Positions 134 through 43,179 of a DNA stretch of 64,000 nt are shown here, one piece after another; position 1 is the first letter of the stretch; each line of letters begins with the position of its first letter. The notes beneath the pieces were generated by a model. The model ran no database searches. It saw only the letters and a list, made by a program, of their open reading frames with translations, and was not told the origin of the DNA. Origin of the DNA: Patescibacteria group bacterium (GTDB lineage Bacteria; Patescibacteriota; Minisyncoccia; Phycocordibacterales; UBA9973); NCBI GenBank assembly GCA_028865035.1, contig JAGWLB010000002.1, forward strand, positions 49,531 through 113,530, given 5' to 3'. The position numbers and the translations under genes are program-made.

Positions 134-1015
134 ATGAAAAGAAATTTATGTTTATTAGGGTTATTCATCTGTATGATGTGTAGCACTACTGCCTTTGCAC
201 AACAAGTAGATCTTACTACAAGTAAAAGTTGCTTGAAATCTGCAACAGATTCCGCAATATTAACACCAACTTTTGCTGGATTTAGTTCTCGTATAAGTTG
301 GGAACTTCAAAAGTTAAATCTTGAATTTGGTAACTGGGATAGCATAGGAAGCCCAAACCTAATGCACTATATTGCTTCAGATTCAGCATCTGAGGCGTAC
401 AGAATTCAAGTTAAAGATTCTGCAACAAATGTAATAGCATTTTCAAACGCTATAATAATTTGCAGGTGTGGTGTTCTTCCCGTAACCCTTTCTTATTTCA
501 CAGGTTCGATAAAAAATAATGCCATAAATATATCCTGGGAAACAGTATCGGAGGAAAATTTCTTTCACTTTGAAGTGCAACGCAGTTTAGATGGAGATCA
601 TTTTTCTACAATTGAAGTTGTACCGGCCTCAGGTACTACTGATAATACTGTAGATTATAATGCCATTGATAAAAATATAAACAATAAGTATATATTTTAT
701 CGACTAAAAATTGTCGATAAAGATGGACACTACAGTTATAGCAATGTCATTGTAATGAGAATTAATGTTCCTCTTAATAAGAACATTATAATCGCTAATC
801 CTGTAGATGATCAAATTGCTATTATTTACAATGGTTTATTAGAACAGAACAAAGCTATTGTTCAACTATATTCTTTAGAAGGAAAAATATTAAAAAATCA
901 ATCCTTTGGAAACGGTATCGTTGATGTAAGCAATCTACCATCAGGGTTTTACATTTGTAGAATCATTGATAGTAAAGGAAATATTTTGTTTCATAAAGAA
1001 ATTATGAAACAATAA
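134..1015 (+). CDS. secreted protein with an FN3/Ig-like middle region and a C-terminal T9SS-type (Por) sorting domain
   Basis: N-terminal signal peptide (MKRNLCLLGLFICMMCSTTAFAQQ). The last ~70 aa (AIVQLYSLEGKILKNQSF...LPSGFYICRIIDSKGNILFHKEIMKQ) match the beta-strand pattern of Bacteroidota T9SS C-terminal domains. Confidence 0.6.
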   Translation: MKRNLCLLGLFICMMCSTTAFAQQVDLTTSKSCLKSATDSAILTPTFAGFSSRISWELQKLNLEFGNWDSIGSPNLMHYIASDSASEAYRIQVKDSATNVIAFSNAIIICRCGVLPVTLSYFTGSIKNNAINISWETVSEENFFHFEVQRSLDGDHFSTIEVVPASGTTDNTVDYNAIDKNINNKYIFYRLKIVDKDGHYSYSNVIVMRINVPLNKNIIIANPVDDQIAIIYNGLLEQNKAIVQLYSLEGKILKNQSFGNGIVDVSNLPSGFYICRIIDSKGNILFHKEIMKQ

Positions 1016-1361: not shown

Positions 1362-2390
1362 ATGCAACATATGTCACAACTTTATAGTAACTCAATCTTT
1401 TGGATAGATGTAGAAAAAATTAAACCAAATCCTTTTCAGCCTAGACGAGAATTTGATGAAGCACGTCTTCGTGACTTGGCTGATTCAATACGCCAGTATG
1501 GAGTGCTCCAGCCACTAACAGTCTCACGAATGGAAGTCCAAAGGGAAGACGGTGGCTTAGCCGTTGAGTATGAGTTGATTGCCGGTGAACGACGCTTGCG
1601 AGCTTCGAAAATTGCAGGTTTAGAGCAAGTTCCTGTGATTATTCGTGTTGGCGATGATAATATGGTGAAACTCGAACTTGCTATAATTGAGAATTTACAA
1701 AGAGAAGATTTGAACGCTGTAGAGCGTGCTCGTGCTTTCTTTCGTTTAGTTGAAGAATTTAAATTTACTCATAGTCAGATTGGGGCTAAAGTCGGGAAAA
1801 GCCGTGAACACGTTTCAAACACTTTAAGGTTATTAGCTTTACCTCAAGAGATTCTTGATGGTTTATCTGCCGGTAAAATTACTGAAGGTCATACACGTCC
1901 TATCCTTATGTTAGCTGATAGGCCTGAAGAACAAATGGTACTGTTTAAAGAAATAATGTTTAAGAAAATGACAGTTAGAGATGCAGAAAAGATTGCTCGT
2001 AAAATCGCCTTTGATCGTGTGCGTAAAAAGGAGTATATGCCTGACCCAGAGATAACAGAAATGGAAGATAAATTACAAGAAGCACTTGGTACTCGTGTTC
2101 ATATAGATCGTAAAGAGAATGGTGGACAGATAATGATTGATTTCTTTTCAAATGATGATTTACGTACTATCTTAGAATTATTAAAATCAAATCAAGATAA
2201 AAATCCAAATGAAATGCTAGAGAACTTTATTGCAGCTCAAAAGGATCAGGAGCAAGAAGTCGTTGGAGAAGTAGAAGGAGATACAACCGAAGATGATAAT
2301 ATACATCTTATAGATGATCGTACGCCCGAAGAAGTTGTTCAAGCTGAAGAAGATGTAGATTTGTACAATATTAAAAATTTCTCAATTTAA
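1362..2390 (+). CDS. parB: chromosome partitioning protein ParB (ParB/Spo0J/Noc family)
   Basis: ParB N-terminal box (IAGERRLRASKIAG) and a helix-turn-helix region (THSQIGAKVGKSREHVSNTLRLL); an acidic C-terminal tail. Confidence 0.85.
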   Translation: MQHMSQLYSNSIFWIDVEKIKPNPFQPRREFDEARLRDLADSIRQYGVLQPLTVSRMEVQREDGGLAVEYELIAGERRLRASKIAGLEQVPVIIRVGDDNMVKLELAIIENLQREDLNAVERARAFFRLVEEFKFTHSQIGAKVGKSREHVSNTLRLLALPQEILDGLSAGKITEGHTRPILMLADRPEEQMVLFKEIMFKKMTVRDAEKIARKIAFDRVRKKEYMPDPEITEMEDKLQEALGTRVHIDRKENGGQIMIDFFSNDDLRTILELLKSNQDKNPNEMLENFIAAQKDQEQEVVGEVEGDTTEDDNIHLIDDRTPEEVVQAEEDVDLYNIKNFSI

Positions 2391-3856
2391 TTTTTACCAA
2401 ACGATAGGAATTTAGAAAGTAAACTATGAGACTTAAGGTAGGCATTAATATGTTTACGTGCTAATCCTGTCTTTGTGTAAACTAACCATTTAGATGAGGG
2501 GTTAGTGTTCTTGTTGACTTGTATCTCTACAATATCATTTGTTTTTAATTTTGTATGGATAGCTACGTTTTTCCCATTCACTCTAGCCCCTTGAGTATGG
2601 TTTCCGATATCAGTGTGTATTGCATAAGCAAAATCTATCACACACGAATCTTCTGGTAAATCTATAATGTCTCCTTTAGGAGTAAACACAAAAACACGAT
2701 CTTTAAAGAAATCCATTTTAATTGTTTTTAAAAATATCTCAGGTTTTTCTTTGTTAATGTTATTGTCATTTAACTTTCTAAGCTCTTGGACCCATTCAAA
2801 TTGCTGTATGTTTATATTTTTGTTTTCTTTGTATGCGAAGTGAGCTGCAATACCATATTCAGCTTCTCTGTGCATTTCATATGTACGAATCTGAATTTCA
2901 ACTATCCCACCTGTTCCAGTAAATATCGTAGTATGTAAACTTCTGTAGCCATTTAATTTTGGAGTAGCTATGTAATCTTTAAAACGATGAGGGAGAGGAG
3001 TCCATGCTCCATGTATGATACCCAGGACATGATAACAGTCTGCAATGGAGTCAACCATTACCCTTAAGGCTAGTATGTCGTATATCTTGCCGATATCCAT
3101 ATCATACTTTTTTAATTTTTTCCATAACGAATACAAATGCTTTTGTCTGTAGTCAACGTTGGAGTTTTCTATGTGATCTTCTTTTAACTTTTTTATCAAT
3201 TCATTCTTAACTTCAATCAAATACTTTTCATCAACACCTTTCTTATCTAAAAGTAATTTGTATACTTCCTTGTATTCTTTAGGGTAAGCAAATTTAAATG
3301 CAGCATCTTCAAGTCGCCCTTTGAGTTGACCCATAGAAAGACGATTAGCCAAAGGTGCATAAACTTCAAGTGTTTCGAGGGCTATTCTTTTCTGTTTGTC
3401 TAGTCTGACATGTTCAAGTGTCTCTATGTTATGTAATCGGTCAGCAAGCTTAATAACTAGTACTCTTAAATCCTCAGTCATAGATACAAAGAATTTGCGT
3501 AAGTTTTCTACATTACGTTCTATTCCTTTGTATTTTATTGTGCCGAGTTTTGTTACTCCTTTTACAAGTAGTACTATTTCTTCTCCGAATTCGTTTTTTA
3601 ATTCTTCCTCGGTTGTATTAGTATCTTCAAGTACGTCGTGTAAGAAACCAGCAGCTATAACTACTGGACCCATACCTAAGTCAGCTAAATTTTTAGCAGT
3701 TTGAAAAACATGAGTAAAGTATGGTTTACCACTTTTACGAAGTTGGCCATTATGGGCTTTAAGTGCAAAATTATATGCTTTCTCAATAAGTGCTTTTTCA
3801 CTAGCATCAATATTGGGAATAATAGAGAATATTTGGTTTATATCTACATTAGGCAT
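2387..3856 (-). CDS. rel: bifunctional (p)ppGpp synthetase/hydrolase, short Rel/SpoT form (HD + synthetase + TGS domains, no ACT domain)
   Basis: HD motif FLHDVLEDT; synthetase motif RFKDYIATPKLNGYRSLHTTI; TGS segment DRVFVFTPKGDIIDLP; length 489 aa. Confidence 0.85.
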   Translation of the reverse strand: MPNVDINQIFSIIPNIDASEKALIEKAYNFALKAHNGQLRKSGKPYFTHVFQTAKNLADLGMGPVVIAAGFLHDVLEDTNTTEEELKNEFGEEIVLLVKGVTKLGTIKYKGIERNVENLRKFFVSMTEDLRVLVIKLADRLHNIETLEHVRLDKQKRIALETLEVYAPLANRLSMGQLKGRLEDAAFKFAYPKEYKEVYKLLLDKKGVDEKYLIEVKNELIKKLKEDHIENSNVDYRQKHLYSLWKKLKKYDMDIGKIYDILALRVMVDSIADCYHVLGIIHGAWTPLPHRFKDYIATPKLNGYRSLHTTIFTGTGGIVEIQIRTYEMHREAEYGIAAHFAYKENKNINIQQFEWVQELRKLNDNNINKEKPEIFLKTIKMDFFKDRVFVFTPKGDIIDLPEDSCVIDFAYAIHTDIGNHTQGARVNGKNVAIHTKLKTNDIVEIQVNKNTNPSSKWLVYTKTGLARKHINAYLKSHSLLSKFLSFGKN

Positions 3857-3893: not shown

Positions 3894-6134
3894 TTATTTC
3901 TTTTTTACCTTTATATTTTCGCCTAGTTTATGAGGATTATGGTTTTTGCACATTTTATTCGAGCACCGCTCAGGTATCGTCTTCGTACCTTCCATCATAA
4001 GAGATTGACAATATGGACAGATGTTACCTGTGGGCTTGGCTTTAATTGCATTCTTACAATCTGGATAGTTACTGCAAGAATAGAATATTCCAAATCTTCC
4101 ACGACGTTCCATCATTTTACCTTTATTGCAAACTGGACAAGTGACATCAGTCATTTTCTTTTTCTTTTCTTCTTCATCTTCTTTTATAAATTTACATTTT
4201 GGGTATCGTGAACAAGAAACAAAAGCTCCGAACTTTCCTTGTCTTATTACTAGTTTTCCACCATGTACCTTTTTCTTTTTTTCTCCTGCCTGCGCAGGCA
4301 GGCCACAGAGTGGACACATTTCACCAGTTTCCTTTGGTCCCTCAAGCTCCAAACCTTCTATAGTACGAGCTCCATCACAGTCGGGGTAACGTGAACATGA
4401 ATAGAATTTACCATTACGAGCAAGTTTTATAATCATAGATGATCCACATTTAGGACAAATCATATCAGCAGGTGCTTCTCCCATATTTGTTGCTTTGGCT
4501 AATTTGTCTTTTTCCTTGATATCTTTCTGGAATGGAATATAAAAATCTTTTAGAGTTTTCACATATTCACGTTTACCATTTGCGATATCATCAAGCTCAT
4601 CTTCCATTTCAGCTGTAAAAGTATCACTTATATATTCAGCGAAATTATTCTCCAGAAAACTCGATACTACATCTCCGGTGTCAGTAGGGAAAAGAGTGCG
4701 ACCTTCTTTTGTAACATAGCCACGGTCTTCTATGGTACGCATTATAGATGCATAAGTACTTGGTCTACCGATACCTCGTGCTTCAAGTTCTTTTACCAAT
4801 CCTGCCTCACTGTATCTGTTTGGTGGTTCAGTGAACTTTTCTGTGTTTTTAAGTTCGAGTAGCTTTAATAGTGCACCGACTTCTACAAGTGGAAGCTCTA
4901 CATCATCACCACGTGCTTCACTATCGCATGCAAGCCATCCAGGAGATATCATTCTTGATCCATTCGCTGTGAAATCTGGTATATCAGCCGATTGAATATT
5001 TGCGATAATTTTTGTTTTCATAAGTTTTGCGTCTATCATTTGTGATGATACTGTGCGTTCCCATATAAGACGATACAATTTTTTCTGTTCATCGTTGGAT
5101 CCTTCATTCATAGACTCAATATGTGTCGGACGAATAGCTTCGTGTGCCTCCTGTGCATTTTTAGATTTAGTTTTATATACACGAAGCTCTACTTGGTCTT
5201 GACCATATTTTTTCTCTATAACTTTTTTAATTTGTTCTTGAGCAACCTTAGCAAGGTTTGTGCTGTCTGTACGCATATAAGTTATAAAACCAGCTTCGTA
5301 TAATTTTTGAGCAACTTGCATTGTTCTTGATGGTGAAAAACCTAAACGAGTACTTGCTGTTTGTTGTAGTGTTGATGTAGTGAATGGTGCGCGTGGGCTA
5401 CGTTTCTGCTCAGACGTTTTTATATCAGTGACAAACCATTTTTCTTTTTCTCCTTTTGTTAATATATTTTCTACAATTTTTTGGTCACGAGGTTCATCAA
5501 CACAAGTTAGTGTTAATTTTTCTTTTTTGGGTGTTTCAAATAATCCTTCAAGTGTCCAATATTGCTCTGGTACAAAAGCACGAATTTCGCGTTCACGTTC
5601 CATAATAATACGTAAAGCAGGGGATTGTACTCTTCCTGCTGATAGTCCATATCTTACTTTTTTCCAAATAATACCCGAGAGATCATATCCTACAAGTCTA
5701 TCAAGTACTCTTCGGGCTTCTTGTGCTTTACGCAGGTTTGTATCTATATCTCGGGGAGATTTCAATGCTTCCTCGACAGCTTCCTTTGTTATTTCATGAA
5801 AAGCCACTCTTTTAATAGGTGCTTTGATCTTACTATTGCTATGTAAGATTTCTTCTATATGCCAGGCGATTGCTTCTCCTTCACGGTCCGGGTCAGTTGC
5901 GAGCATTATCTCATTTGCTTTTAATGCTAAATCTGTCAATTCATTTACAACTTTTTCTTTACCTTTTGAAATTTCATAGTGTGGAACAAATCCACCAGGT
6001 ATATCAATTGCAGTTTTGTTAGATTTTGGTAAATCACGTATATGTCCGACAGATGCACGGACAGTAAAAGCTCCATCGAGATACTTCTCAATAGTTTTTG
6101 CTTTTGAAGGTGATTCAACAATTAATAATTTCAT
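3894..6134 (-). CDS. topA: DNA topoisomerase I with three C-terminal C4 zinc ribbons
   Basis: TOPRIM start MKLLIVESPSKAKTIEKYL; catalytic-core motifs; three CPxC...CxxxxC ribbons. The middle ribbon carries an extra LPAQAGEKKKKVHGG segment encoded by the palindrome at 4285..4302. Confidence 0.9.
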   Translation of the reverse strand: MKLLIVESPSKAKTIEKYLDGAFTVRASVGHIRDLPKSNKTAIDIPGGFVPHYEISKGKEKVVNELTDLALKANEIMLATDPDREGEAIAWHIEEILHSNSKIKAPIKRVAFHEITKEAVEEALKSPRDIDTNLRKAQEARRVLDRLVGYDLSGIIWKKVRYGLSAGRVQSPALRIIMEREREIRAFVPEQYWTLEGLFETPKKEKLTLTCVDEPRDQKIVENILTKGEKEKWFVTDIKTSEQKRSPRAPFTTSTLQQTASTRLGFSPSRTMQVAQKLYEAGFITYMRTDSTNLAKVAQEQIKKVIEKKYGQDQVELRVYKTKSKNAQEAHEAIRPTHIESMNEGSNDEQKKLYRLIWERTVSSQMIDAKLMKTKIIANIQSADIPDFTANGSRMISPGWLACDSEARGDDVELPLVEVGALLKLLELKNTEKFTEPPNRYSEAGLVKELEARGIGRPSTYASIMRTIEDRGYVTKEGRTLFPTDTGDVVSSFLENNFAEYISDTFTAEMEDELDDIANGKREYVKTLKDFYIPFQKDIKEKDKLAKATNMGEAPADMICPKCGSSMIIKLARNGKFYSCSRYPDCDGARTIEGLELEGPKETGEMCPLCGLPAQAGEKKKKVHGGKLVIRQGKFGAFVSCSRYPKCKFIKEDEEEKKKKMTDVTCPVCNKGKMMERRGRFGIFYSCSNYPDCKNAIKAKPTGNICPYCQSLMMEGTKTIPERCSNKMCKNHNPHKLGENIKVKKK
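4285..4302. repeat. 18-bp GC-rich perfect palindrome CCTGCCTGCGCAGGCAGG (21-mer shared with 13138..13158), in frame inside topA
   Basis: Exact 21-nt identity (CCTGCCTGCGCAGGCAGGCCA) with the copy inside intergenic repeat A1. GC-rich in an AT-rich genome. Encodes an insertion relative to the two sibling zinc ribbons. Confidence 0.7.
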
Positions 6135-7117: not shown

Positions 7118-8428
7118 ATGCTAGACATTAAATTCATCAGAGAGAATAAAGATATAGTAAAAGCTGGCATTAAAAAAAAGAATGCCAATGTGGATATAGA
7201 TGAACTTCTCAAGCTAGACGAGAAGAGACTTTCAATTATGGCAAGTTCTGAGATTCTTCGCAGTGAACAAAACAGAATGAACAACTCAATTGCTGCAGAG
7301 AAAGATTTTAATACACGACAGCAAATGATAAATGAAATGAAGATTGTTAAGGATGAATTTAAAGAAAAAGAAGAAGAACTTCAAAAAATTATAGCTCAAT
7401 GGCAAGCCTTAATGTTAAAGATACCAAATATTCCATCTGTAGATACACCAGAAGGTCCAGATGAAACAGGTAATCAAGTTATAAGACAATGGGGAGAGAA
7501 GCCTGAATTTTCTTTTACTCCCAAAGAACATTTTGAACTTGGTAAAAATTTAGGAGTAATAGACACAGAAACTGCTGCAGAAGTTGCTTCATCACGCTTT
7601 TCTTACTTAAAAGGTGATTTGGTCCTTTTACAGTTTGCTCTTATACAGATGTGTTTAGAAATTTTAACAAATCAAGAAACTTTATCTAAGATAGCTCAAG
7701 AAGCTGGTCTTTCTGTAAATACAAAAGAATTCATTCCTGTTATACCTCCAGTATTCATTAGACCACTAGTACAAATAAAAATGGCACGTTATCTTACTCC
7801 AGATGATCATTATATTTTCCCTAATGATGATCTTATGCTTATAGGTAGTGCTGAACATACTTTAGGTTCAATGCATATGAATAAGATTTTTGAAGAGAAT
7901 GAATTGCCTATTAGATATGCAGGTTACTCGACTGCGTTTAGACGTGAAGCAGGTACTGCTGGTAAAGATACTAACGGAATCCTAAGACAACACCAATTTG
8001 ATAAATTAGAAATGGAGGTTTTTTCTTTACCCGAGAATTCAACCCAGGAACAGAATTTTCTAGTAGCAATACAAGAGTACATATTAAAGACTCTAAATTT
8101 ACCCTACCAAGTAGTTTCCGTTTGTACAGGTGATATGGGTTTCCCAGATACTAGACAAATAGATATAGAGACTTGGATGCCAGGACAGAACAAATATAGA
8201 GAGACTCATAGCTCAGATAGCACCGGCGGTTTTCAAGCTCGTCGTCTGAATACGAGAGTACGCAGGAAAGATGGAAGAATAGAGCCTGTGCATATGAATG
8301 ATGCTACTGTTGTTGCTGTTGGTCGCACTTTGATTGCTATTATGGAAAACTATCAACAAGAAGATGGAAGTATAAAAATCCCAGAAGTTCTAAGGAAGTA
8401 TTTTAATAAAGATATTATTTCTTCATAA
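7118..8428 (+). CDS. serS: seryl-tRNA synthetase
   Basis: N-terminal coiled-coil arm; class II aaRS motifs (FRREAGTAGKDTNGILRQHQFDKLEM...); 436 aa. Confidence 0.9.
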   Translation: MLDIKFIRENKDIVKAGIKKKNANVDIDELLKLDEKRLSIMASSEILRSEQNRMNNSIAAEKDFNTRQQMINEMKIVKDEFKEKEEELQKIIAQWQALMLKIPNIPSVDTPEGPDETGNQVIRQWGEKPEFSFTPKEHFELGKNLGVIDTETAAEVASSRFSYLKGDLVLLQFALIQMCLEILTNQETLSKIAQEAGLSVNTKEFIPVIPPVFIRPLVQIKMARYLTPDDHYIFPNDDLMLIGSAEHTLGSMHMNKIFEENELPIRYAGYSTAFRREAGTAGKDTNGILRQHQFDKLEMEVFSLPENSTQEQNFLVAIQEYILKTLNLPYQVVSVCTGDMGFPDTRQIDIETWMPGQNKYRETHSSDSTGGFQARRLNTRVRRKDGRIEPVHMNDATVVAVGRTLIAIMENYQQEDGSIKIPEVLRKYFNKDIISS

Positions 8429-27105: not shown

Positions 27106-28643
<1,538 letters not shown>

Positions 28644-28846
28644 TGAAACCGATCATGTATCTTATTTATAAGTACATTCGATCTTATTGAGTCGATATTA
28701 TGTGCCTCAATTGAGCACATAATGGACATTGATTTTAAGTCCTAAAAGAAATCTGACAAGGAGGGAAAGACCCCTAGAACGGAACAAAAGAAAAGATATT
28801 TTATTCTGACATTTGATTTACATCGCAACCTATTTTATTACAGAAC

Positions 28847-30897: not shown

Positions 30898-31318
30898 GGT
30901 TTGTATTGGATAGATGCGTTCACTTTATTGTGAATGAGGAAAGTCCGAACACATATCATTGAGCAACCTGCATGCGCAGGCATGTCAATGAAAGCGTAGT
31001 GGGTAATACCCATCGTGAGTAATCATAGAGGTGCGAGCAGTGACGTCTATAATCGAAAGAGAATAGATAACCTGTACCCTTGTATGTCTGGAATTTTTCA
31101 GACAGAAACTCGGATAAGTTCAGCAGGTTAATACAGAAGATATAAAAGGGTATTTGAAGCTTCTGAGTGAAACGGCTAAATCCTTACGTGTGTGCAAGAC
31201 CGTGCTTTGACTTCTGTCAAAGAGAGTCGCTTGAGCCTTTGTGTAAATAAAGGCCTAGATAAATATCTATCGTCTGCTTTAAAACAGATACAGAATTCGG
31301 CTTATAAATACAAATCAA
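30898..31318 (+). ncRNA. rnpB: RNase P RNA (bacterial type)
   Basis: P4 strands GAGGAAAGTCCGAAC and ACAGAATTCGGCTTATA; P1 pairing TTTGTAT/ATACAAA; terminator hairpin at 31325-31356. Confidence 0.85.
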
Positions 31319-31435
31319 GATATGAAAAACACCTTGTCCAAAGCAAGGTGTTTTTCATATCTACCAGATCAATTTTAGTAAATTCAAATTTCTATTATTT
31401 GAAAATTATTAAAATTAGTTTTTTATATAAATAAC

Positions 31436-31660
31436 TTTTTATTTTTTTATTTACAAAAATTTTTTAAAAATTTAACAACATTTTTTTTACAAAAAAATAA
31501 AAAGTTATCCACACTTTTTTTGTAAAAAGTATTGCAGTAAGAGTTTATATGTAAGATAATATATGTATGAGTGTGATTAATTTTTTTACAAAATTTTTTT
31601 AAAAATTTTGTAAGGTCGTGAAATCATACATCTTTTAAAAATAATTAATTTTTTAAACAA
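31436..31660. promoter_or_regulatory. AT-rich region with five TTTACAAAA motifs (three forward, two reverse, forming palindromes) and one consensus DnaA box TTATCCACA at 31505-31513
   Basis: Motifs read directly; for example TACAAAATTTTTTTAAAAATTTTGTA is a perfect palindrome. Confidence 0.5.
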
Positions 31661-31661
31661 T

Positions 31662-31763
31662 ATGGCAGCTAAAAAAAAGGCTAAAAAAAAGACTGTTAAA
31701 AAAGTAGCTAAGAAAAAGGCAGTTAAAAAAACAGCTAAGAAAGCAAAAAAAGGTAAGAAATAA
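31662..31763 (+). CDS. 33-aa lysine/alanine-rich basic protein (AKK repeats; histone H1/Hc1-tail-like), not in the ORF track
   Basis: MAAKKKAKKKTVKKVAKKKAVKKTAKKAKKGKK; followed by terminator AAAAATCCCCTCTCTATCGGGGATTTTTT at 31777-31808. Confidence 0.45.
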   Translation: MAAKKKAKKKTVKKVAKKKAVKKTAKKAKKGKK

Positions 31764-31830
31764 TTTTACCAAATTATAAAAAATCCCCTCTCTATCGGGG
31801 ATTTTTTATTTATGTTAGAATGTTAAAACT

Positions 31831-34335
31831 ATGAGTATATTAAAGGGAATATTCGGTACAGAGAATGATCGAATGATCAAGAAATGGCAACCGTTAGTCA
31901 ATAAAATAAATAATCTTGAGCCAGAAATGAAAAAGCTTGAAGATGGTGACTTTGTTAAACAGACAGAGCTTCTTCGTTCTAGGATTGCAAAAGGGGAAAC
32001 ATTAGATGATGTTTTACCAGAAGCTTTCGCTTTAGTGAGAGAAGCATCATTAAGAATTCAAAATCAACGTCATTATGATGTTCAAATTATAGGAGGTATA
32101 GCTCTACATATGGGTAACATCGCTGAGATGCGTACTGGTGAAGGAAAGACATTAGTAGCAACTTCACCAGCTTATTTGAATGCACTTACGGGCAAGGGTG
32201 TCCACATTGTTACAGTTAATGATTACTTGTCACGCCGTGACGGTGTTTGGATGGGTCCTATATATGCAATGTTAGGTATGTCAGTTGGTGTTGTTAATTC
32301 TTTAAATACTTCTTTTGTGTATGATCCATCACATAAATCTCCAGATAAAGAAAGTGATGACGATACAAGTTCATTCAAAGTTCAATACGAATTCCTTAGA
32401 CCTTGTAGTAGAGCTGAAGCTTATGCTTGTGATATTACATATGGTACAAATAACGAATTTGGTTTCGATTTTTTGAGGGATAATCTGGCAAATAATGTAG
32501 GTGAAATTGTTCAACGTGGCCACAACTATAGTATTGTTGATGAGGTTGACTCTATATTAATAGATGAATCTCGTACTCCACTTATTATATCGTCACAAAC
32601 AGAAGATTCTGAGGATTTATATTATACTTTTGCAAAAATTGCTAAACAGTTAAATCTTGAAGAAGATTACACTGTTGACGAGAAGCTTAAGGCAATTTCA
32701 CTTACTGATGCAGGTATAACTAAAGCAGAGTCGTTATTGGGTATCTCTGATATTTATACCCAAAAGGGTATTAAATATGTTCATCATCTAGAGACTGCCG
32801 TCAGAGCGCGTGCTTTATATGAAAATAATAAAGATTATGTCGTGAAAGATGGAGAAGTTGTTATTGTTGATTCTTTCACAGGAAGATTACAGCCAGGTAG
32901 ACGATGGAGTGAAGGTCTTCATCAAGCTATTGAAGCAAAGGAAGGTGTAAAAATTGAGAAGGAAACTCGAGCTGTAGCCTCTATAACATTCCAGAATTAT
33001 TTTAGATTCTACGATAAACTTTCAGGTATGACAGGTACCGCTGAAACCTCAAAAGAAGAATTTTTAAAGGTTTATGGTCTTGACGTGGTTGTGATTCCCA
33101 CACACAGAACTATAAATAGAATTGACCACAATGATTTAATATATCAGACAGAGAAAGGTAAATTAGAAGCAGTTGCCAGTAGAGTGAAAGAGTTGAACAA
33201 GGCTGGTCAACCGGTTTTGATTGGTACGGTTTCCATTGAAAAAAATGAACTTTTATCTGCATATCTTACTAGTGCTGGTGTGCCCCATACAGTGCTAAAT
33301 GCTAAAAATCACGAACGCGAAGGTGAGATCATAGCTAATGCAGGACGCAAAGGTGCTGTTACTGTGGCTACAAATATGGCAGGACGCGGAGTTGATATCA
33401 AACTAGGCGGAGTACCATTTGATACTAAGCATTACGATGAAGTTAAATCACTTGGTGGTTTATTTGTCCTTGGTACCGAACGACACGAAGCCCGTCGTAT
33501 CGATAACCAGTTACGAGGTCGTTCTGGACGTCAGGGTGATCCCGGAGAAACTCAGTTCTATGTTTCTTTAGAAGATGATTTAATGCGTATTTTCGGTTCA
33601 GATCGTATTAAGAAAATGATGGGTCGTTTTGGTATACCAGAAGATCAGCCAATAGAGAATCGATTCATCTCTAATACTTTAGAAAATGCTCAAGCAAAAA
33701 TAGAAGGTTTTCATTTTGATTCTCGTAAGCATACTCTTGAATACGATAATGTAATGAATCACCAACGTAAAATTATCTATGATCGTAGACGCGTAATGCT
33801 AAAGGGTAGTTTTGATGATCTAAATAAATTCTTAGACGAATTGGCAGAAATTTATCCAGATTTAAAGGAAGTAATAATAGAGAAAAAGGCAGCATTTGGA
33901 GATAATGCTTTCTTTGAGACCGTTCGTCGTATTGCACTTTATACTACAGATACTCTATGGGTGGAACATTTAGAGACTATGGAATATACTATGTCTTCTG
34001 TTAATCTTAGAGCCTATGGTCAAAGAGAACCTTTAATTGAATATAAAAAGGAAGGTTTGCGTTTATTTAAGGAAATGGAGGCCTTGTTTAAGGAACAAGT
34101 AGCTTCTTTGATAAGAACTATGAACGTAGAAGGCACTGATAGACCGATAGAAGTGATAGCTGAGCAACCTGCTTTGATTTTGAGCTCTTCTGGGAGTGAA
34201 GGGGATGCATCTAATTCAAATATAAACAAATCAAGCACTCAAACTATATCAAAAAATGAACCCAAAACCGGACGTAATGACCCCTGCTATTGTGGATCTG
34301 GCAAGAAGTATAAGCATTGTCACGGAAAAGAGTAA
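31831..34335 (+). CDS. secA: preprotein translocase ATPase SecA, with a C-terminal zinc-binding tail
   Basis: Walker A MRTGEGKT, DEAD-like motif, C-terminal CYCGSGKKYKHCHG. Confidence 0.95.
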   Translation: MSILKGIFGTENDRMIKKWQPLVNKINNLEPEMKKLEDGDFVKQTELLRSRIAKGETLDDVLPEAFALVREASLRIQNQRHYDVQIIGGIALHMGNIAEMRTGEGKTLVATSPAYLNALTGKGVHIVTVNDYLSRRDGVWMGPIYAMLGMSVGVVNSLNTSFVYDPSHKSPDKESDDDTSSFKVQYEFLRPCSRAEAYACDITYGTNNEFGFDFLRDNLANNVGEIVQRGHNYSIVDEVDSILIDESRTPLIISSQTEDSEDLYYTFAKIAKQLNLEEDYTVDEKLKAISLTDAGITKAESLLGISDIYTQKGIKYVHHLETAVRARALYENNKDYVVKDGEVVIVDSFTGRLQPGRRWSEGLHQAIEAKEGVKIEKETRAVASITFQNYFRFYDKLSGMTGTAETSKEEFLKVYGLDVVVIPTHRTINRIDHNDLIYQTEKGKLEAVASRVKELNKAGQPVLIGTVSIEKNELLSAYLTSAGVPHTVLNAKNHEREGEIIANAGRKGAVTVATNMAGRGVDIKLGGVPFDTKHYDEVKSLGGLFVLGTERHEARRIDNQLRGRSGRQGDPGETQFYVSLEDDLMRIFGSDRIKKMMGRFGIPEDQPIENRFISNTLENAQAKIEGFHFDSRKHTLEYDNVMNHQRKIIYDRRRVMLKGSFDDLNKFLDELAEIYPDLKEVIIEKKAAFGDNAFFETVRRIALYTTDTLWVEHLETMEYTMSSVNLRAYGQREPLIEYKKEGLRLFKEMEALFKEQVASLIRTMNVEGTDRPIEVIAEQPALILSSSGSEGDASNSNINKSSTQTISKNEPKTGRNDPCYCGSGKKYKHCHGKE

Positions 34336-35279: not shown

Positions 35280-38200
35280 TTATTGCAACTTTTTAAAGTT
35301 TTCGATAATTATGCTCTTCTCTCCATTTCTCTGGGTTACTTTTCCAGAAAGCGCAATAATATCATCTTTTATCAATAAACTCTTGGTTTGTTCGAATAAT
35401 TTATTAAAGACAACACAATCTATTGATCCTGAAGTATCTGATATTTTAATAAAGGCCATTAAATTATTACTTTTGGTATTTATAATTCTTACATCATTTA
35501 TAATAGCTGCAACAGTGACAGGCATTCCAACCTTTACTTCTTCTATTATTTTTTTAATTAGGACTCCAAATTTTTCAATTTTTTCTTTGTAGCTATCTAG
35601 TGGATGTCCTGATATATAAAGACCTAATAAATCTTTCTCCCAAGTTAACTTCTCATTCATAGTGGCTTCCTCTTGCTTCACTAGAGATAATTTTACTTCA
35701 GGTGTGCCAATATCACTAAAAAGTGAATTTTGAGAGGATACAATTTTAGATTCTTTATTAAATGCAAGTAAAGTTTCCAAGTTACCGATAATCATATTAC
35801 GGCTAGCTAAATCATCCATCGCACCTGATTTGGCTAACGCCTCAACTGATTTTTTGTTTAAATTTTTATGATTAATACGTTCAAAAAAATCAGTCAGTGA
35901 TTTGAATCGGCCTCTACCTACGGGTGGATTTTTTCGTTCTTCGATAATTGCATCTGCTATATCTTTACCTAAATTCTTAATAGTATATAACCCAAATCTT
36001 ATTGTCTGTCCCTCTGGTTTATCACTACCAACTACAACGGTAAAACCACCAAAGCTTTCATTGATGTTCGGAGGTAATACTTTAATATTCATTTTTTCAC
36101 ATTCGTGAACTATTTCAGCAACTTTATCAATATCACCAGATTCAGCTGTCATTATAGCTGTCATATATTCTACTGGGAAATTGGCTTTCATATATGCTGT
36201 CTGGTATGCAACACGTCCATAACTTGCAGAATGGGCTTTATTAAAACCATAAGCCGCGAATGGTTCTATTTGGTCCCATAATTGTACAGCTTTCTTATGT
36301 GGCCACTTACTGTGCTTTACACATCCATTAATGAAACGGTCCTTCTGCTCTGCCATTTCTTGAGGTATCTTTTTACCGACGGCTTTACGGAATTTATCTG
36401 CTTCACCCCAACTATAACCTGCAATATTGATGGCAATTAACAGAAGATCATCTTGGTAAACCAGCACACCGTATGTTTGTCTTAATATCGGTTCCAAACT
36501 ATCATCAAGATATTTTATTAATTTTTCATTGTATTTACGCTCTATATATAGTGGAATAAATTGCATAGGACCTGGTCTATACAGAGCCACCATAGCATTA
36601 ATATCATGTATAGTGTTGGGCTTTAATTCTTTTAGATAGTGAGTCATACCAGACCCATTTAATTGAAAAAGACCAATAGTTTCTCCTCTGGCTAACATTT
36701 CAAATGTCTTCTTGTCATCAAGGGGTATTTTATTAAGGTCGATGCTTATATTATGTATTGTTTTTACAAGCCTCACTGCATCTGCCAAAATTGCTAGATT
36801 TCTTATGCCAAGGAAATCAAATTTAGGTAAGCCTGCGTCTTCGATATTGTACATATCGTACTGAGTTATCATATTTCCACCTTTAGGATCGAATTGGATA
36901 GGGGAAAATTCATAAAGCGGTCGTGGTGCAATAACAATACCAGCAGCATGGACTGATATGTGGCGTACACAACCTTCCATTTTTTTAGCTAAATCAATTA
37001 TCTTTTTTGTATCAGCTTCCTTTTCATAAGCTTCTTTTAATTCAGGAACTATCTCCATAGCATAATCAATAGTCATAGCTGAACCCTGTGATCCAAGTGG
37101 AATCATACTAGAGATACGATCTCCTATAGTGTATGGGTATCCTAAAGCTCTAGCAACATCACGGACAGAACCCTTTGCCATCATTGTTCCAAATGTTCCG
37201 ATTTGTGCCACTCTATCTTCTCCGTATTTTTTCTTTGCATATTGAATCATCTCATCGCGTCTGTTATCTGCGAAGTCCATATCTATATCAGGTAATGATG
37301 GGCGTTCTGGGTTTAGGAAACGTTCAAAAGGAAGTTTGTATTCAAGTGGATCAATGTTTGTAATTCCAAGCAGATAAGTAGTGAGTGACCCTGCGACTGA
37401 TCCTCTAACATTAGTAAGAATACCATGATTGCGTGCATAAGTAAGAAGATCACCCACAACTAAAAAGTAAGTGGGATAACCTTTTTGTTTTATGATACCC
37501 ATTTCATATTCCAGACGATCGACATACTCTTTGGATTGCGGTAAATCTCTAAATTTAAATCCTTCATACGCAAGGCCCCGAAGGATTTCATCTGCAGTTG
37601 TACCTTCTGGGATAGGAAAATCAGGGAAGTAAGCCTTACCTAAATCAAGATCGTAAGTTTCGCATAAATTAGCTACTATTAATGTATTTTCAACTGCTTC
37701 TGGAATTTCTTTAAAATATTCTTTTGCTGTTTTTTCGTTAATAAGAGAAAAATCATCCTCGGAGAATTCAAATTTACCGTTAGTTCCATCACTTCCTGTA
37801 TTAACTTGAAGAAGAGTGTGATGAGCTTCATGGTCATCTGCACAAGGGTAATGTGAATCTTGAGCTGCGACAATGGGTATCTGCCATTTCTTGCCAAGTG
37901 CAATAATGCCATCACGGAGTTTCTTATCTCCATCTATATGTGGATGTGAATGTGCTTCAAGAAAATAATTCTCTTTACCAAAAATATCTTGATGCTCTTT
38001 CACAAGTTCATCTGCTCGTTCGAAGTTATCTGCTAATATAGCTTGAGAAAGCTGACTACCCATACATCCAGATAAACAGATAATACCCTCATGAAATTCT
38101 TTTAGAATTTCTTTATCCATACGAGGTTTATAGTAATATCCTTCAAGATTAGCAATAGTAACTAACCTCATTAGATTTTTATATCCTTGAATATTTTTAG

Positions 38201-38480
38201 CAAGTAATGTAAGGTGGTATCTTTTATTATCTATTCCAGGTTCTTTATCTTTTAGCCCACGTTCAGCAATATATGCTTCTACTCCTATGATTGGCTTAAT
38301 TCCAGCTTTGTTACACTTTTTATAGAATTCAATAGCTCCATACATATTACCGTGATCTGTGAGCGCTACAGCAGACATTTTGTGCTCTTTTGCTATGCGG
38401 ACAATGTCTTCTATTTTAGATAATCCATCTAGTAAAGAATAGTGTGAGTGGGTATGTAGATGAATAAATTTGGAGTCCAT
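35280..38480 (-). CDS. dnaE: DNA polymerase III alpha subunit
   Basis: PHP domain (HLHTHSHYSLLDG), polymerase core, OB fold; 1066 aa. Confidence 0.95.
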   Translation of the reverse strand: MDSKFIHLHTHSHYSLLDGLSKIEDIVRIAKEHKMSAVALTDHGNMYGAIEFYKKCNKAGIKPIIGVEAYIAERGLKDKEPGIDNKRYHLTLLAKNIQGYKNLMRLVTIANLEGYYYKPRMDKEILKEFHEGIICLSGCMGSQLSQAILADNFERADELVKEHQDIFGKENYFLEAHSHPHIDGDKKLRDGIIALGKKWQIPIVAAQDSHYPCADDHEAHHTLLQVNTGSDGTNGKFEFSEDDFSLINEKTAKEYFKEIPEAVENTLIVANLCETYDLDLGKAYFPDFPIPEGTTADEILRGLAYEGFKFRDLPQSKEYVDRLEYEMGIIKQKGYPTYFLVVGDLLTYARNHGILTNVRGSVAGSLTTYLLGITNIDPLEYKLPFERFLNPERPSLPDIDMDFADNRRDEMIQYAKKKYGEDRVAQIGTFGTMMAKGSVRDVARALGYPYTIGDRISSMIPLGSQGSAMTIDYAMEIVPELKEAYEKEADTKKIIDLAKKMEGCVRHISVHAAGIVIAPRPLYEFSPIQFDPKGGNMITQYDMYNIEDAGLPKFDFLGIRNLAILADAVRLVKTIHNISIDLNKIPLDDKKTFEMLARGETIGLFQLNGSGMTHYLKELKPNTIHDINAMVALYRPGPMQFIPLYIERKYNEKLIKYLDDSLEPILRQTYGVLVYQDDLLLIAINIAGYSWGEADKFRKAVGKKIPQEMAEQKDRFINGCVKHSKWPHKKAVQLWDQIEPFAAYGFNKAHSASYGRVAYQTAYMKANFPVEYMTAIMTAESGDIDKVAEIVHECEKMNIKVLPPNINESFGGFTVVVGSDKPEGQTIRFGLYTIKNLGKDIADAIIEERKNPPVGRGRFKSLTDFFERINHKNLNKKSVEALAKSGAMDDLASRNMIIGNLETLLAFNKESKIVSSQNSLFSDIGTPEVKLSLVKQEEATMNEKLTWEKDLLGLYISGHPLDSYKEKIEKFGVLIKKIIEEVKVGMPVTVAAIINDVRIINTKSNNLMAFIKISDTSGSIDCVVFNKLFEQTKSLLIKDDIIALSGKVTQRNGEKSIIIENFKKLQ

Positions 38481-43053: not shown

Positions 43054-43179
43054 TTATTTAGATTTCTTCTTTGATGCTTTTTTCTCTAACATTAATTTTT
43101 TAACCTCTAATCTTTTCTTAGTCTTATGAGAGTGACGTGATCTCTTTTTAGGACCAAGAGTTGTATCTCTTTTTGCCAT
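43054..43179 (-). CDS. 41-aa highly basic protein (possible small ribosomal protein, bL32-like PKKRSRHSH segment), not in the ORF track
   Basis: MAKRDTTLGPKKRSRHSHKTKKRLEVKKLMLEKKASKKKSK. Confidence 0.3.
   Translation of the reverse strand: MAKRDTTLGPKKRSRHSHKTKKRLEVKKLMLEKKASKKKSK

Follow-up and report, generated by a model that had tools for sequence, protein, structure and literature searches.

A small transcription unit with a DnaA box and a lysine-rich micro-protein predicted upstream of secA in Parcubacteria

The AT-rich interval that separates the RNase P RNA gene rnpB from secA in the window, i.e., the whole 64,000-nucleotide (64-kb) stretch of Patescibacteria DNA analysed here, is best explained, with a probability that we put at about 0.6, as a compact, independently transcribed small gene with its control region, in which a probably DnaA-modulated promoter would drive the synthesis of a polycationic micro-protein. 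The order and spacing of the parts of this module, their conservation, the coding character of its short open reading frame (sORF) of 33 amino acids (aa) and its link to secA are established by the comparison of related sequences. The module and the gene behind it comprise, from 5' to 3', the following features.

31502-31518 (+): 17-mer AAGTTATCCACACTTTT, which contains the DnaA box TTATCCACA, no invariant block of alignment A1 being longer
31514-31531 (+): T-tract followed by A-tract, CTTTTTTTGTAAAAAGTA, between the box and the -35, containing the reverse copy (31518-26) of the 9-mer TTTACAAAA
31532-31560 (+): sigma-70-type promoter with the -35 TTGCAG (31532-37), a 17-nt spacer and the -10 GATAAT (31555-60)
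31567-31661 (+): structured 5' leader of 95 nt with an outer stem, an inner hairpin, GGUCG and CUUUUAAAAAUAAU
31662-31763 (+): sORF of a 33-aa polycation, MAAKKKAKKKTVKKVAKKKAVKKTAKKAKKGKK, with 19 Lys (58%) and no acidic residue
31776-31809 (+): intrinsic terminator of the sORF transcript, AAAAAATCCCCTCTCTATCGGGGATTTTTT, from the terminator scan
31813-31821 (+): extended -10 of secA, TGTTAGAAT, 9 nt before the secA ATG
31831-34335 (+): secA, the conserved gene 3' of the module

The same order of parts (DnaA box, T/A tract, -35/-10, leader with GGUCG, sORF, terminator, and then secA) was found in two sets of loci, one selected by SecA and unbiased as to the box, the other selected by the 17-mer and unbiased as to the sORF. 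The closest relatives of the window SecA, whose product is identical to a Patescibacteria SecA in NCBI, belong to Paceibacterota, and in the SecA-selected set the module is present in all seven of the distinct close relatives, namely in L001 (79% SecA identity), L002 (78%), L003 (63%) and L004 (59%), as well as in L201/L202 (78%) and L203 (84%). Both the box and the Lys-rich sORF are absent in six other Parcubacteria secA loci (L204-L209) and in 30 secA loci outside Patescibacteria, so that the two co-occur perfectly among the SecA-selected loci. A metagenome scan for the bare AAGTTATCCACACTTTT gave at least 120 stretches; among the matches listed, at least 33 are complete distinct modules (including the window and L001-L004), and about 5 more, which bring the number to about 38, are atypical or cut by contig ends. 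The leader measures about 90-205 nt across the modules, and in about 30 of the approximately 33 with enough sequence secA follows, starting 270-600 nt past the box, at SecA identities of 52-85% and behind a variable upstream neighbour. Two loci, L084 and L108, carry the box and a K-rich sORF without secA, and in L099 (109-400) and L158 (1810-2100) the 17-mer, the promoter spacing and a GGTCG leader precede another 50-aa basic protein, MKEKKPTKKEVSEVMKSIASKGGKATLRAHGKKHFQKLAKLSHIKRYGKK, for which neither Pfam nor NCBIfam gave a match and which has no secA downstream; these four loci indicate that the box is tied to small basic-protein genes rather than to secA. The blocks next most conserved in alignment A1 after AAGTTATCCACACTTTT are the A-run, ATT(G), the -10 ATAAT, GGTCG, AATAA and ATGGCAG. 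As judged from these loci, the module is conserved in one large branch of Patescibacteria (Parcubacteria/Paceibacterota), and the literature search found no paper describing it.

The perfect DnaA box TTATCCACA, pointed out at 31505-31513 by the first-pass annotation, was confirmed there as the sole exact copy in the window, where boxes with up to one mismatch number 19 against 23 expected, i.e., about as many as chance would give, and the surroundings of the locus are free of them out to 1.6 kb. The match covers all 9/9 positions and extends to what we take to be the flanking G of strong E. coli boxes. The box is centred at about -58, counted from a transcription start inferred at about 31567, and the end of the -10 falls 40-42 nt past the 17-mer in 31 of 33 modules; the TTGCAG/GATAAT promoter had been missed by the automated promoter scan, whose rules demand more hexamer matches. 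Between the two, the T-run/A-run pattern is conserved across the modules as a consensus, its GTA core not, and the tract presumably resembles an UP element, judged by the E. coli consensus. The 17-mer is kept in every SecA-selected relative with the sORF, L201/L202 differing at the last base only. A consensus DnaA box with a set place relative to the promoter is kept across species, and such a fixed position and orientation relative to the RNA polymerase signals are as expected for a transcription-factor site, whereas an origin element would not need them. Of the roles offered earlier for the interval, that of a DnaA-regulated promoter is the one supported, the box standing at a fixed distance upstream of the conserved -35/-10.

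Outside the module, 27 other AAGTTATCCACACTTTT matches among the matches listed lie inside clusters of at least three DnaA boxes, and in at least 10 other contigs the clusters with the 17-mer adjoin dnaA and, in some of them, also dnaN. The identical 17-mer was located inside the box clusters of three AT-rich metagenomic contigs, namely L183 (4048-4064, directly upstream of dnaA), L155 (2683-2699, between dnaA and dnaN) and L086 (about 3970, after jag-mnmE). To judge by these matches, AAGTTATCCACACTTTT has two main natural homes, the dnaA-linked box clusters and the secA-upstream module, and its occurrence in the former makes DnaA the obvious candidate binder.

The leader of the predicted transcript folds with a minimum free energy of -20.3 kcal/mol (z=-4.2). 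Its outer stem, GUGUGAUU/AAUCAUAC, in which 31571-78 pairs with 31622-29, is paired in 91.6% of cells of a model-based alignment of 17 relatives, and 4 of its 7 pairs are changed on both sides, a number equalled by only 0-2 of 500 shuffles. The inner hairpin (31584-31615) is the palindrome of the first-pass annotation, TACAAAATTTTTTTAAAAATTTTGTA, which was indeed located at 31587-31612; in the relatives one of its pairs is seen as C-G, G-C and U-A, and G.U pairs occur as well, which fits pairing of the sense-strand RNA rather than a symmetric DNA site. The pairs of the inner hairpin were taken from single-sequence folds, the MAFFT alignment having mis-registered this part. Just 3' of the hairpin stands GGUCG (31614-18), present in 30 of 34 leaders at variable distances from the transcript start and from the ATG; it occupies the loop of a simple hairpin in some lineages and the extreme 5' end in the L004-like form. 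Whether a stem surrounds GGUCG in every leader was put to an alignment-free test, which reached no significance, stems of 5-6 bp arising by chance in AU-rich sequence; the enclosing stem is claimed only for the clade with the covariation. A further conserved motif, CUUUUAAAAAUAAU, is found at 31632-45. Rfam 15 offers no family match over the leader hairpin (31569-31632) with an E of 1 or less, and the covariance model R1, built from the leader, recovers only the window-like clade with L003, L144 and, weakly, L184, with no second copy in the window.

The presence of such a leader is unusual for this genome. A Shine-Dalgarno motif precedes 1 of the 51 larger open reading frames (ORFs) of the window, and the 16S 3' end (28600-28645) reads ...GTTCGTGGAATAATTC instead of ...GGATCACCTCC, the CCUCC anti-Shine-Dalgarno being absent; the motif TGnTAnAAT stands 5-12 nt ahead of the start codon at about 15 of the 51, which implies that leaderless mRNAs are probably widespread here. 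Against this near-absence of leaders and of Shine-Dalgarno pairing elsewhere, the conserved 95-nt leader stands out. At its other end the unit is closed by the terminator, whose stem and loop are near-identical throughout the window-like clade and whose distance from the stop codon ranges between 13 and 55 nt. TGnTAnAAT is placed 7-11 nt ahead of the secA ATG in the relatives, and the secA mRNA would be leaderless or near-leaderless from its own extended -10 promoter.

The sORF has orthologues of 12-74 aa in all modules, always on the strand of the box. Lysine makes up 52% of the residues over 34 sORFs, followed by A 23%, V 9%, R 8%, and T and P at 3% each, and among about 1,090 residues a single one is acidic; codons for acidic and aromatic residues are nearly absent, thymine makes up 1% of codon position 1 and 15% of position 3, and the two other sense frames are broken by stops in 18/34 and 23/34 sORFs. 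The tract start ATGGC(A/T) is conserved, the Arg codons are of both the CGN and the AGR type, and the C-termini of subclades stay constant through synonymous changes, as in KKRA (CGA/AGA, GCA/GCT, TAG/TAA) and KKGKK (GGT/GGA). The long forms contain short tandem repeats, such as KRKPAKRKAA in L096 and L128, and the length varies through the repeat number. A gene of 29 aa was called at the same position by one Joint Genome Institute (JGI) annotation, most annotations having missed it. These patterns support the view of the sORF as a real coding gene of histone-H1-tail-like composition, as had been surmised from its lysine-rich look, with the conserved synteny, start, codon periodicity and synonymous changes in its favour. 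As a side observation, the L002 orthologue (5668-5875) is enlarged by VAKKK-type repeats and seems frameshifted in an A-run, the lysine-rich reading going on in another frame to a second stop; this apparent frameshift may be either an assembly error or real slippage.

From these parts a mechanism may be proposed. The sigma-70-type promoter, with its T/A tract and one DnaA box at about -58, would start a transcript of about 240 nt, which would consist of the 95-nt structured leader (a stem around the hairpin and GGUCG) and the coding region of a 33-aa peptide made nearly entirely of Lys, Ala, Val and Thr, and would end at the intrinsic terminator, secA being expressed separately from its own extended -10 as a near-leaderless mRNA. 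DnaA bound at the box may modulate the promoter, since a site near -58 could touch RNA polymerase or compete with its alpha subunit for the T/A tract, and the amount of the polycation would then track the replication-initiation status. The peptide itself may be a nucleic-acid-binding polycation, like the histone H1 tail, Hc2 or protamine, and the leader hairpin with GGUCG may control stability or translation.

Several observations weigh against this explanation. In most modules two frames of the strand opposite the sORF are open too, which AAR codons would lead one to expect, so that the choice of strand draws on the promoter, the conserved ATG(GC) start and the terminator position. No homology placement of the peptide was obtained by family models or searches, which leaves composition as what points to a nucleoid role, and a peptide of 12-15 aa, as some lineages have it, is short for a nucleoid protein of the classical kind. 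The invariant block of 17 bp is longer than a monomeric DnaA site requires, so that another factor could be involved; the near-universal secA adjacency is left unexplained by a nucleoid function; and the metagenome set was chosen by the exact 17-mer, by which the variation of the box is under-sampled. The antisense Phe/Leu-rich ORF, open in most modules, was rejected as a candidate gene, having no promoter and needing transcription through the terminator.

The secA adjacency leads to another explanation, rather unlikely in our estimate, that the unit regulates secA, either in cis, through read-through at the terminator or the position of the ribosome, or as a small RNA of dual function in trans, with a secondary role for the peptide. 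It would account for the retention of secA behind the module over the whole range of SecA identities and under changing upstream neighbours, and for the non-coding parts of the transcript (leader and terminator loop) being conserved as much as the coding one; besides, sister Parcubacteria have an ORF-less small RNA unit in the same position, and the window leader start UGAGUGUG resembles the small-RNA 5' end GUGAGUGCU. However, a strong terminator is followed by the conserved extended -10 of secA itself, the fold offers no alternative antiterminator pairing, the stop-to-terminator distance is variable, and L084 and L108 dispense with secA altogether. SecM and the other Sec/YidC monitoring substrates (upstream of secA, secDF and yidC) share with the module a small ORF just upstream of secA in conserved synteny. 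Such substrates are recognised by an N-terminal signal or transmembrane segment, a spacer of more than 30 aa and a conserved C-terminal arrest motif (PMC10987492), whereas the module peptide has none of the three and is separated from secA by a terminator and a separate promoter, which also speaks against translational coupling of the sORF to secA on one mRNA. A SecM-like arrest peptide was rejected, as the peptides consist almost throughout of K/A/V/R/T/P, go down to 12 aa, and vary in their C-termini between subclades. The amino-acid attenuation leaders (his, phe, thr) likewise share a short ORF of one codon family followed by an intrinsic terminator, but the module ORF has its own 95-nt leader, and the downstream secA has its own promoter and belongs to no lysine pathway; a lysine attenuation leader was rejected, the single-sequence fold of 31567-31812 giving independent leader and terminator hairpins with no competing pairing.

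The units of the sister lineages were described in the six loci L204-L209, in each of which secA starts at 1501 and the unit and leader lie 20-400 nt upstream of it. There, secA has a long GC-rich hairpin leader with covarying stems and a large loop with the invariant GAGCACTCAC and GGAGGTCACC, and in 5 of the 6 loci a separate promoter-to-terminator unit without an ORF is present upstream. The secA leader, which also carries GGAGGUCACC, has in its loop the motif AGCACUCAC, a complement of the small-RNA 5' end GUGAGUGCU; the extended pairing of GUGAGUGCU with the loop covaries in L207 and L209. On the side of the window-type leaders, L181 has GGAGGUCGA in the loop of its leader. Rfam gave no match for this secA leader and small RNA unit. 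The resemblances between the window-type leaders and the sister-lineage units suggest, short of proof, a common ancestry.

It is also conceivable, if doubtful, that the box is read by a factor other than DnaA or is a mere element of promoter architecture. The 17 invariant bp have partly palindromic flanks (AAAAGT...ACTTTT) and go beyond the need of a DnaA monomer, and only one box is present, when the characterised DnaA-controlled promoters generally have several. On the other side stand the 9/9 consensus match, invariant across lineages with SecA just 59% identical, and the fact that the main other context of the 17-mer is the DnaA-box clusters beside dnaA/dnaN. Known DnaA-controlled promoters (E. 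coli dnaA, nrdAB and mioC; B. subtilis dnaA and sda) share with the module a TTATCCACA box beside a sigma-70-type promoter, and in B. subtilis sda the target is likewise the gene of a very small protein. They usually have several boxes at variable positions, whereas the module has a single box at a fixed position within an invariant 17-mer, and in 32 of 33 modules the neighbouring 300 nt contain no second box with up to one mismatch; the regulation of the module is predicted from its sequence.

The view of the transcript as a non-coding RNA with an untranslated purine-rich tract is improbable, distinctly more so than the two preceding ones. The strong conservation of leader and terminator, the highly variable sORF length, the ORF-less RNA unit at the same place in the sister lineages and the absence of all 10 sORF products submitted to an exact look-up in a 15-billion-protein collection would agree with it. 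However, the conserved ATGGC(A/T) start with strong three-base periodicity, the interchange of synonymous Arg and Ala codons under constant subclade C-terminal residues, the rarity of acidic and aromatic codons beside broken sense frames, and the gene called at this position by one pipeline all argue for translation.

The AT-rich sequence itself had been described as about 225 bp of 85-90% AT between rnpB and secA, and this held: 31436-31661 (226 bp) is 85% AT, with a peak of 92-96% over 31400-31500. One further feature belongs here.

31363-31501 (strand not given): AT-rich spacer, 90-96% AT, holding two forward TTTACAAAA copies, not conserved

From the five TTTACAAAA motifs reported, three forward and two reverse, four proved exact, at 31450-58 (+), 31486-94 (+), 31585-93 (+) and 31518-26 (-), and the second reverse site, 31606-14, reads CTTACAAAA and is a near copy of 8/9; the imperfect DnaA-box-like TGTGATTAA was found as reported, at 31572-31580. 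The 4 exact copies in 31436-31661 compare with 0.19 expected under a first-order Markov model, and none of 5000 simulations reaches 4. Among 32 modules, the window alone has the two upstream copies, whereas the -35-adjacent copy is present in 6 and the leader copy in 5, and the spacer matching that of the window is GC-richer in L001 and replaced by a nearby upstream gene in L003 and L004. The conserved feature is the T-run/A-run pattern with the hairpin base pairing rather than TTTACAAAA itself, and the copies appear, from this distribution, as by-products of the T/A tracts and the AU-rich leader hairpin. The iteron- or operator-like role proposed for the 9-mer was rejected accordingly, the copies other than the unique upstream ones lying within the T/A tract by the -35 and the leader RNA hairpin.

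That the interval is the chromosomal oriC or a part of it, with the box beside an AT-rich unwinding element and the TTTACAAAA repeats as iterons, is hardly credible: the perfect box bordered by about 140 bp of 90-96% AT, the local excess of the 9-mer, and ParB in the same window about 29 kb off, would fit, but there is a single box, the near-boxes are at the chance level with none nearby, a second box is missing from 32 of 33 modules, both dnaA and dnaN are absent by tblastn from the window and from all loci with the module, several of them longer than 10 kb, the cumulative GC skew climbs through 31.5 kb with no minimum at the locus, the spacer and upstream 9-mers are not conserved, and all conserved elements are explained by transcription and translation signals at fixed spacing. 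The origin suggested by the first-pass annotation was rejected on these grounds; the analysis covered the 64 kb rather than the whole genome, and an origin elsewhere was not located.

As to the relatives of the peptide, no family of Pfam or NCBIfam matched it, the models PF07382, NF038052 and NF038053 giving at best E 0.5-1.2 and about 10 bits against cut-offs of 40-135 bits, so that the composition fits the Hc1- or H1-type membership proposed for it and the models do not bear it out. A phmmer search against 1.84 billion representative proteins and a word-indexed search with a 51-aa orthologue gave nothing useful, and the exact-product look-up of the window sORF returned no record. The H1-like proteins (Hc2/HctB, Hc1, the Burkholderia/Bordetella H1-like proteins, AlgP and the HupB C-terminal tails) share with the module peptides the extreme low complexity in Lys/Ala(/Pro/Val), the short tandem repeats and the repeat-driven length variation. 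They are of about 120-240 aa and have curated models, whereas the module peptides are of only 12-74 aa and fall below the cut-offs of those models; we know of no gene of the Hc1/Hc2/AlgP/HupB group with a DnaA box in its promoter. The tiny polybasic ribosomal proteins eL41, bTHX and bS22 are similar in size (about 25-33 aa) and charge density, but they keep their length and sequence, whereas the module peptides gain and lose repeats. The ingredients, lysine-rich nucleoid-type proteins and DnaA-box promoters, are known; what is new is the combination of a single box at a fixed position, a GGUCG leader, a polylysine-like micro-protein of 12-74 aa and a constant linkage to secA.

The remaining features of the window that were recorded around the module are the following.

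1362-2390 (strand not given): ParB, ORF about 29 kb from the locus
2387-3856 (-): RelA/SpoT, ORF
3894-6134 (-): topoisomerase I, ORF
7118-8428 (strand not given): SerRS, ORF
30898-31320 (+): rnpB (RNase P RNA), RF00010, 93.6 bits, E=7e-29, model matched full-length
31318-31362 (strand not given): terminator hairpin behind rnpB, from the terminator scan
35280-38480 (-): DnaE, ORF

The gene rnpB is the upstream neighbour only and lies outside the module; it is found in that place in the window and L001 alone, the gene upstream of the module being different in L002-L004. Its score of 93.6 bits is just under the Rfam gathering score of 100, by which it is missed in a default scan, and, compared with the class A RNase P model, it carries large insertions in the alignment. 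The 16S rRNA gene (27106-28643) is isolated, with no 23S or 5S in the whole 64 kb, and is followed by a 545-aa ORF without a Pfam match. A small basic ORF of 41 aa, MAKRDTTLGPKKRSRHSHKTKKRLEVKKLMLEKKASKKKSK, at 43054-43179 (-) near a tRNA gene has no match in Pfam or NCBIfam, and an ORF of 293 aa at 134-1015 (+) scores 34.6 bits, at a cut-off of 27, against the Por_Secre_tail C-terminal sorting domain, which is usually associated with the type IX secretion of Bacteroidota.

In Patescibacteria the genomes are tiny, the cells densely packed and recognisable regulators few, and their replication control and DNA organisation are very little understood, for which the locus provides a specific and directly testable hypothesis: one invariant box whose place in the promoter is fixed, together with a micro-protein of high charge. 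Only synteny and the regulatory DNA lead to this conserved gene, whose sORF escapes homology searches and most gene callers, and the region upstream of secA emerges as a conserved site of small regulatory transcription units across Parcubacteria. The pattern GTTATCCACAC up to 45 nt upstream of a -10 would define box-bearing promoters, i.e., a putative DnaA regulon. In a bolder form, which is tentative and on balance unlikely, the single high-affinity DnaA box would gate a polylysine-like micro-protein (12-74 aa) that compacts or neutralises nucleic acid, and the GGUCG-leader transcript might also act on secA as a dual-function RNA. If so, the ultra-small Parcubacteria would have in the module a minimal bacterial analogue of histone synthesis coupled to replication, and protein export would be tied to chromosome packing and replication status through a dual-function transcript.

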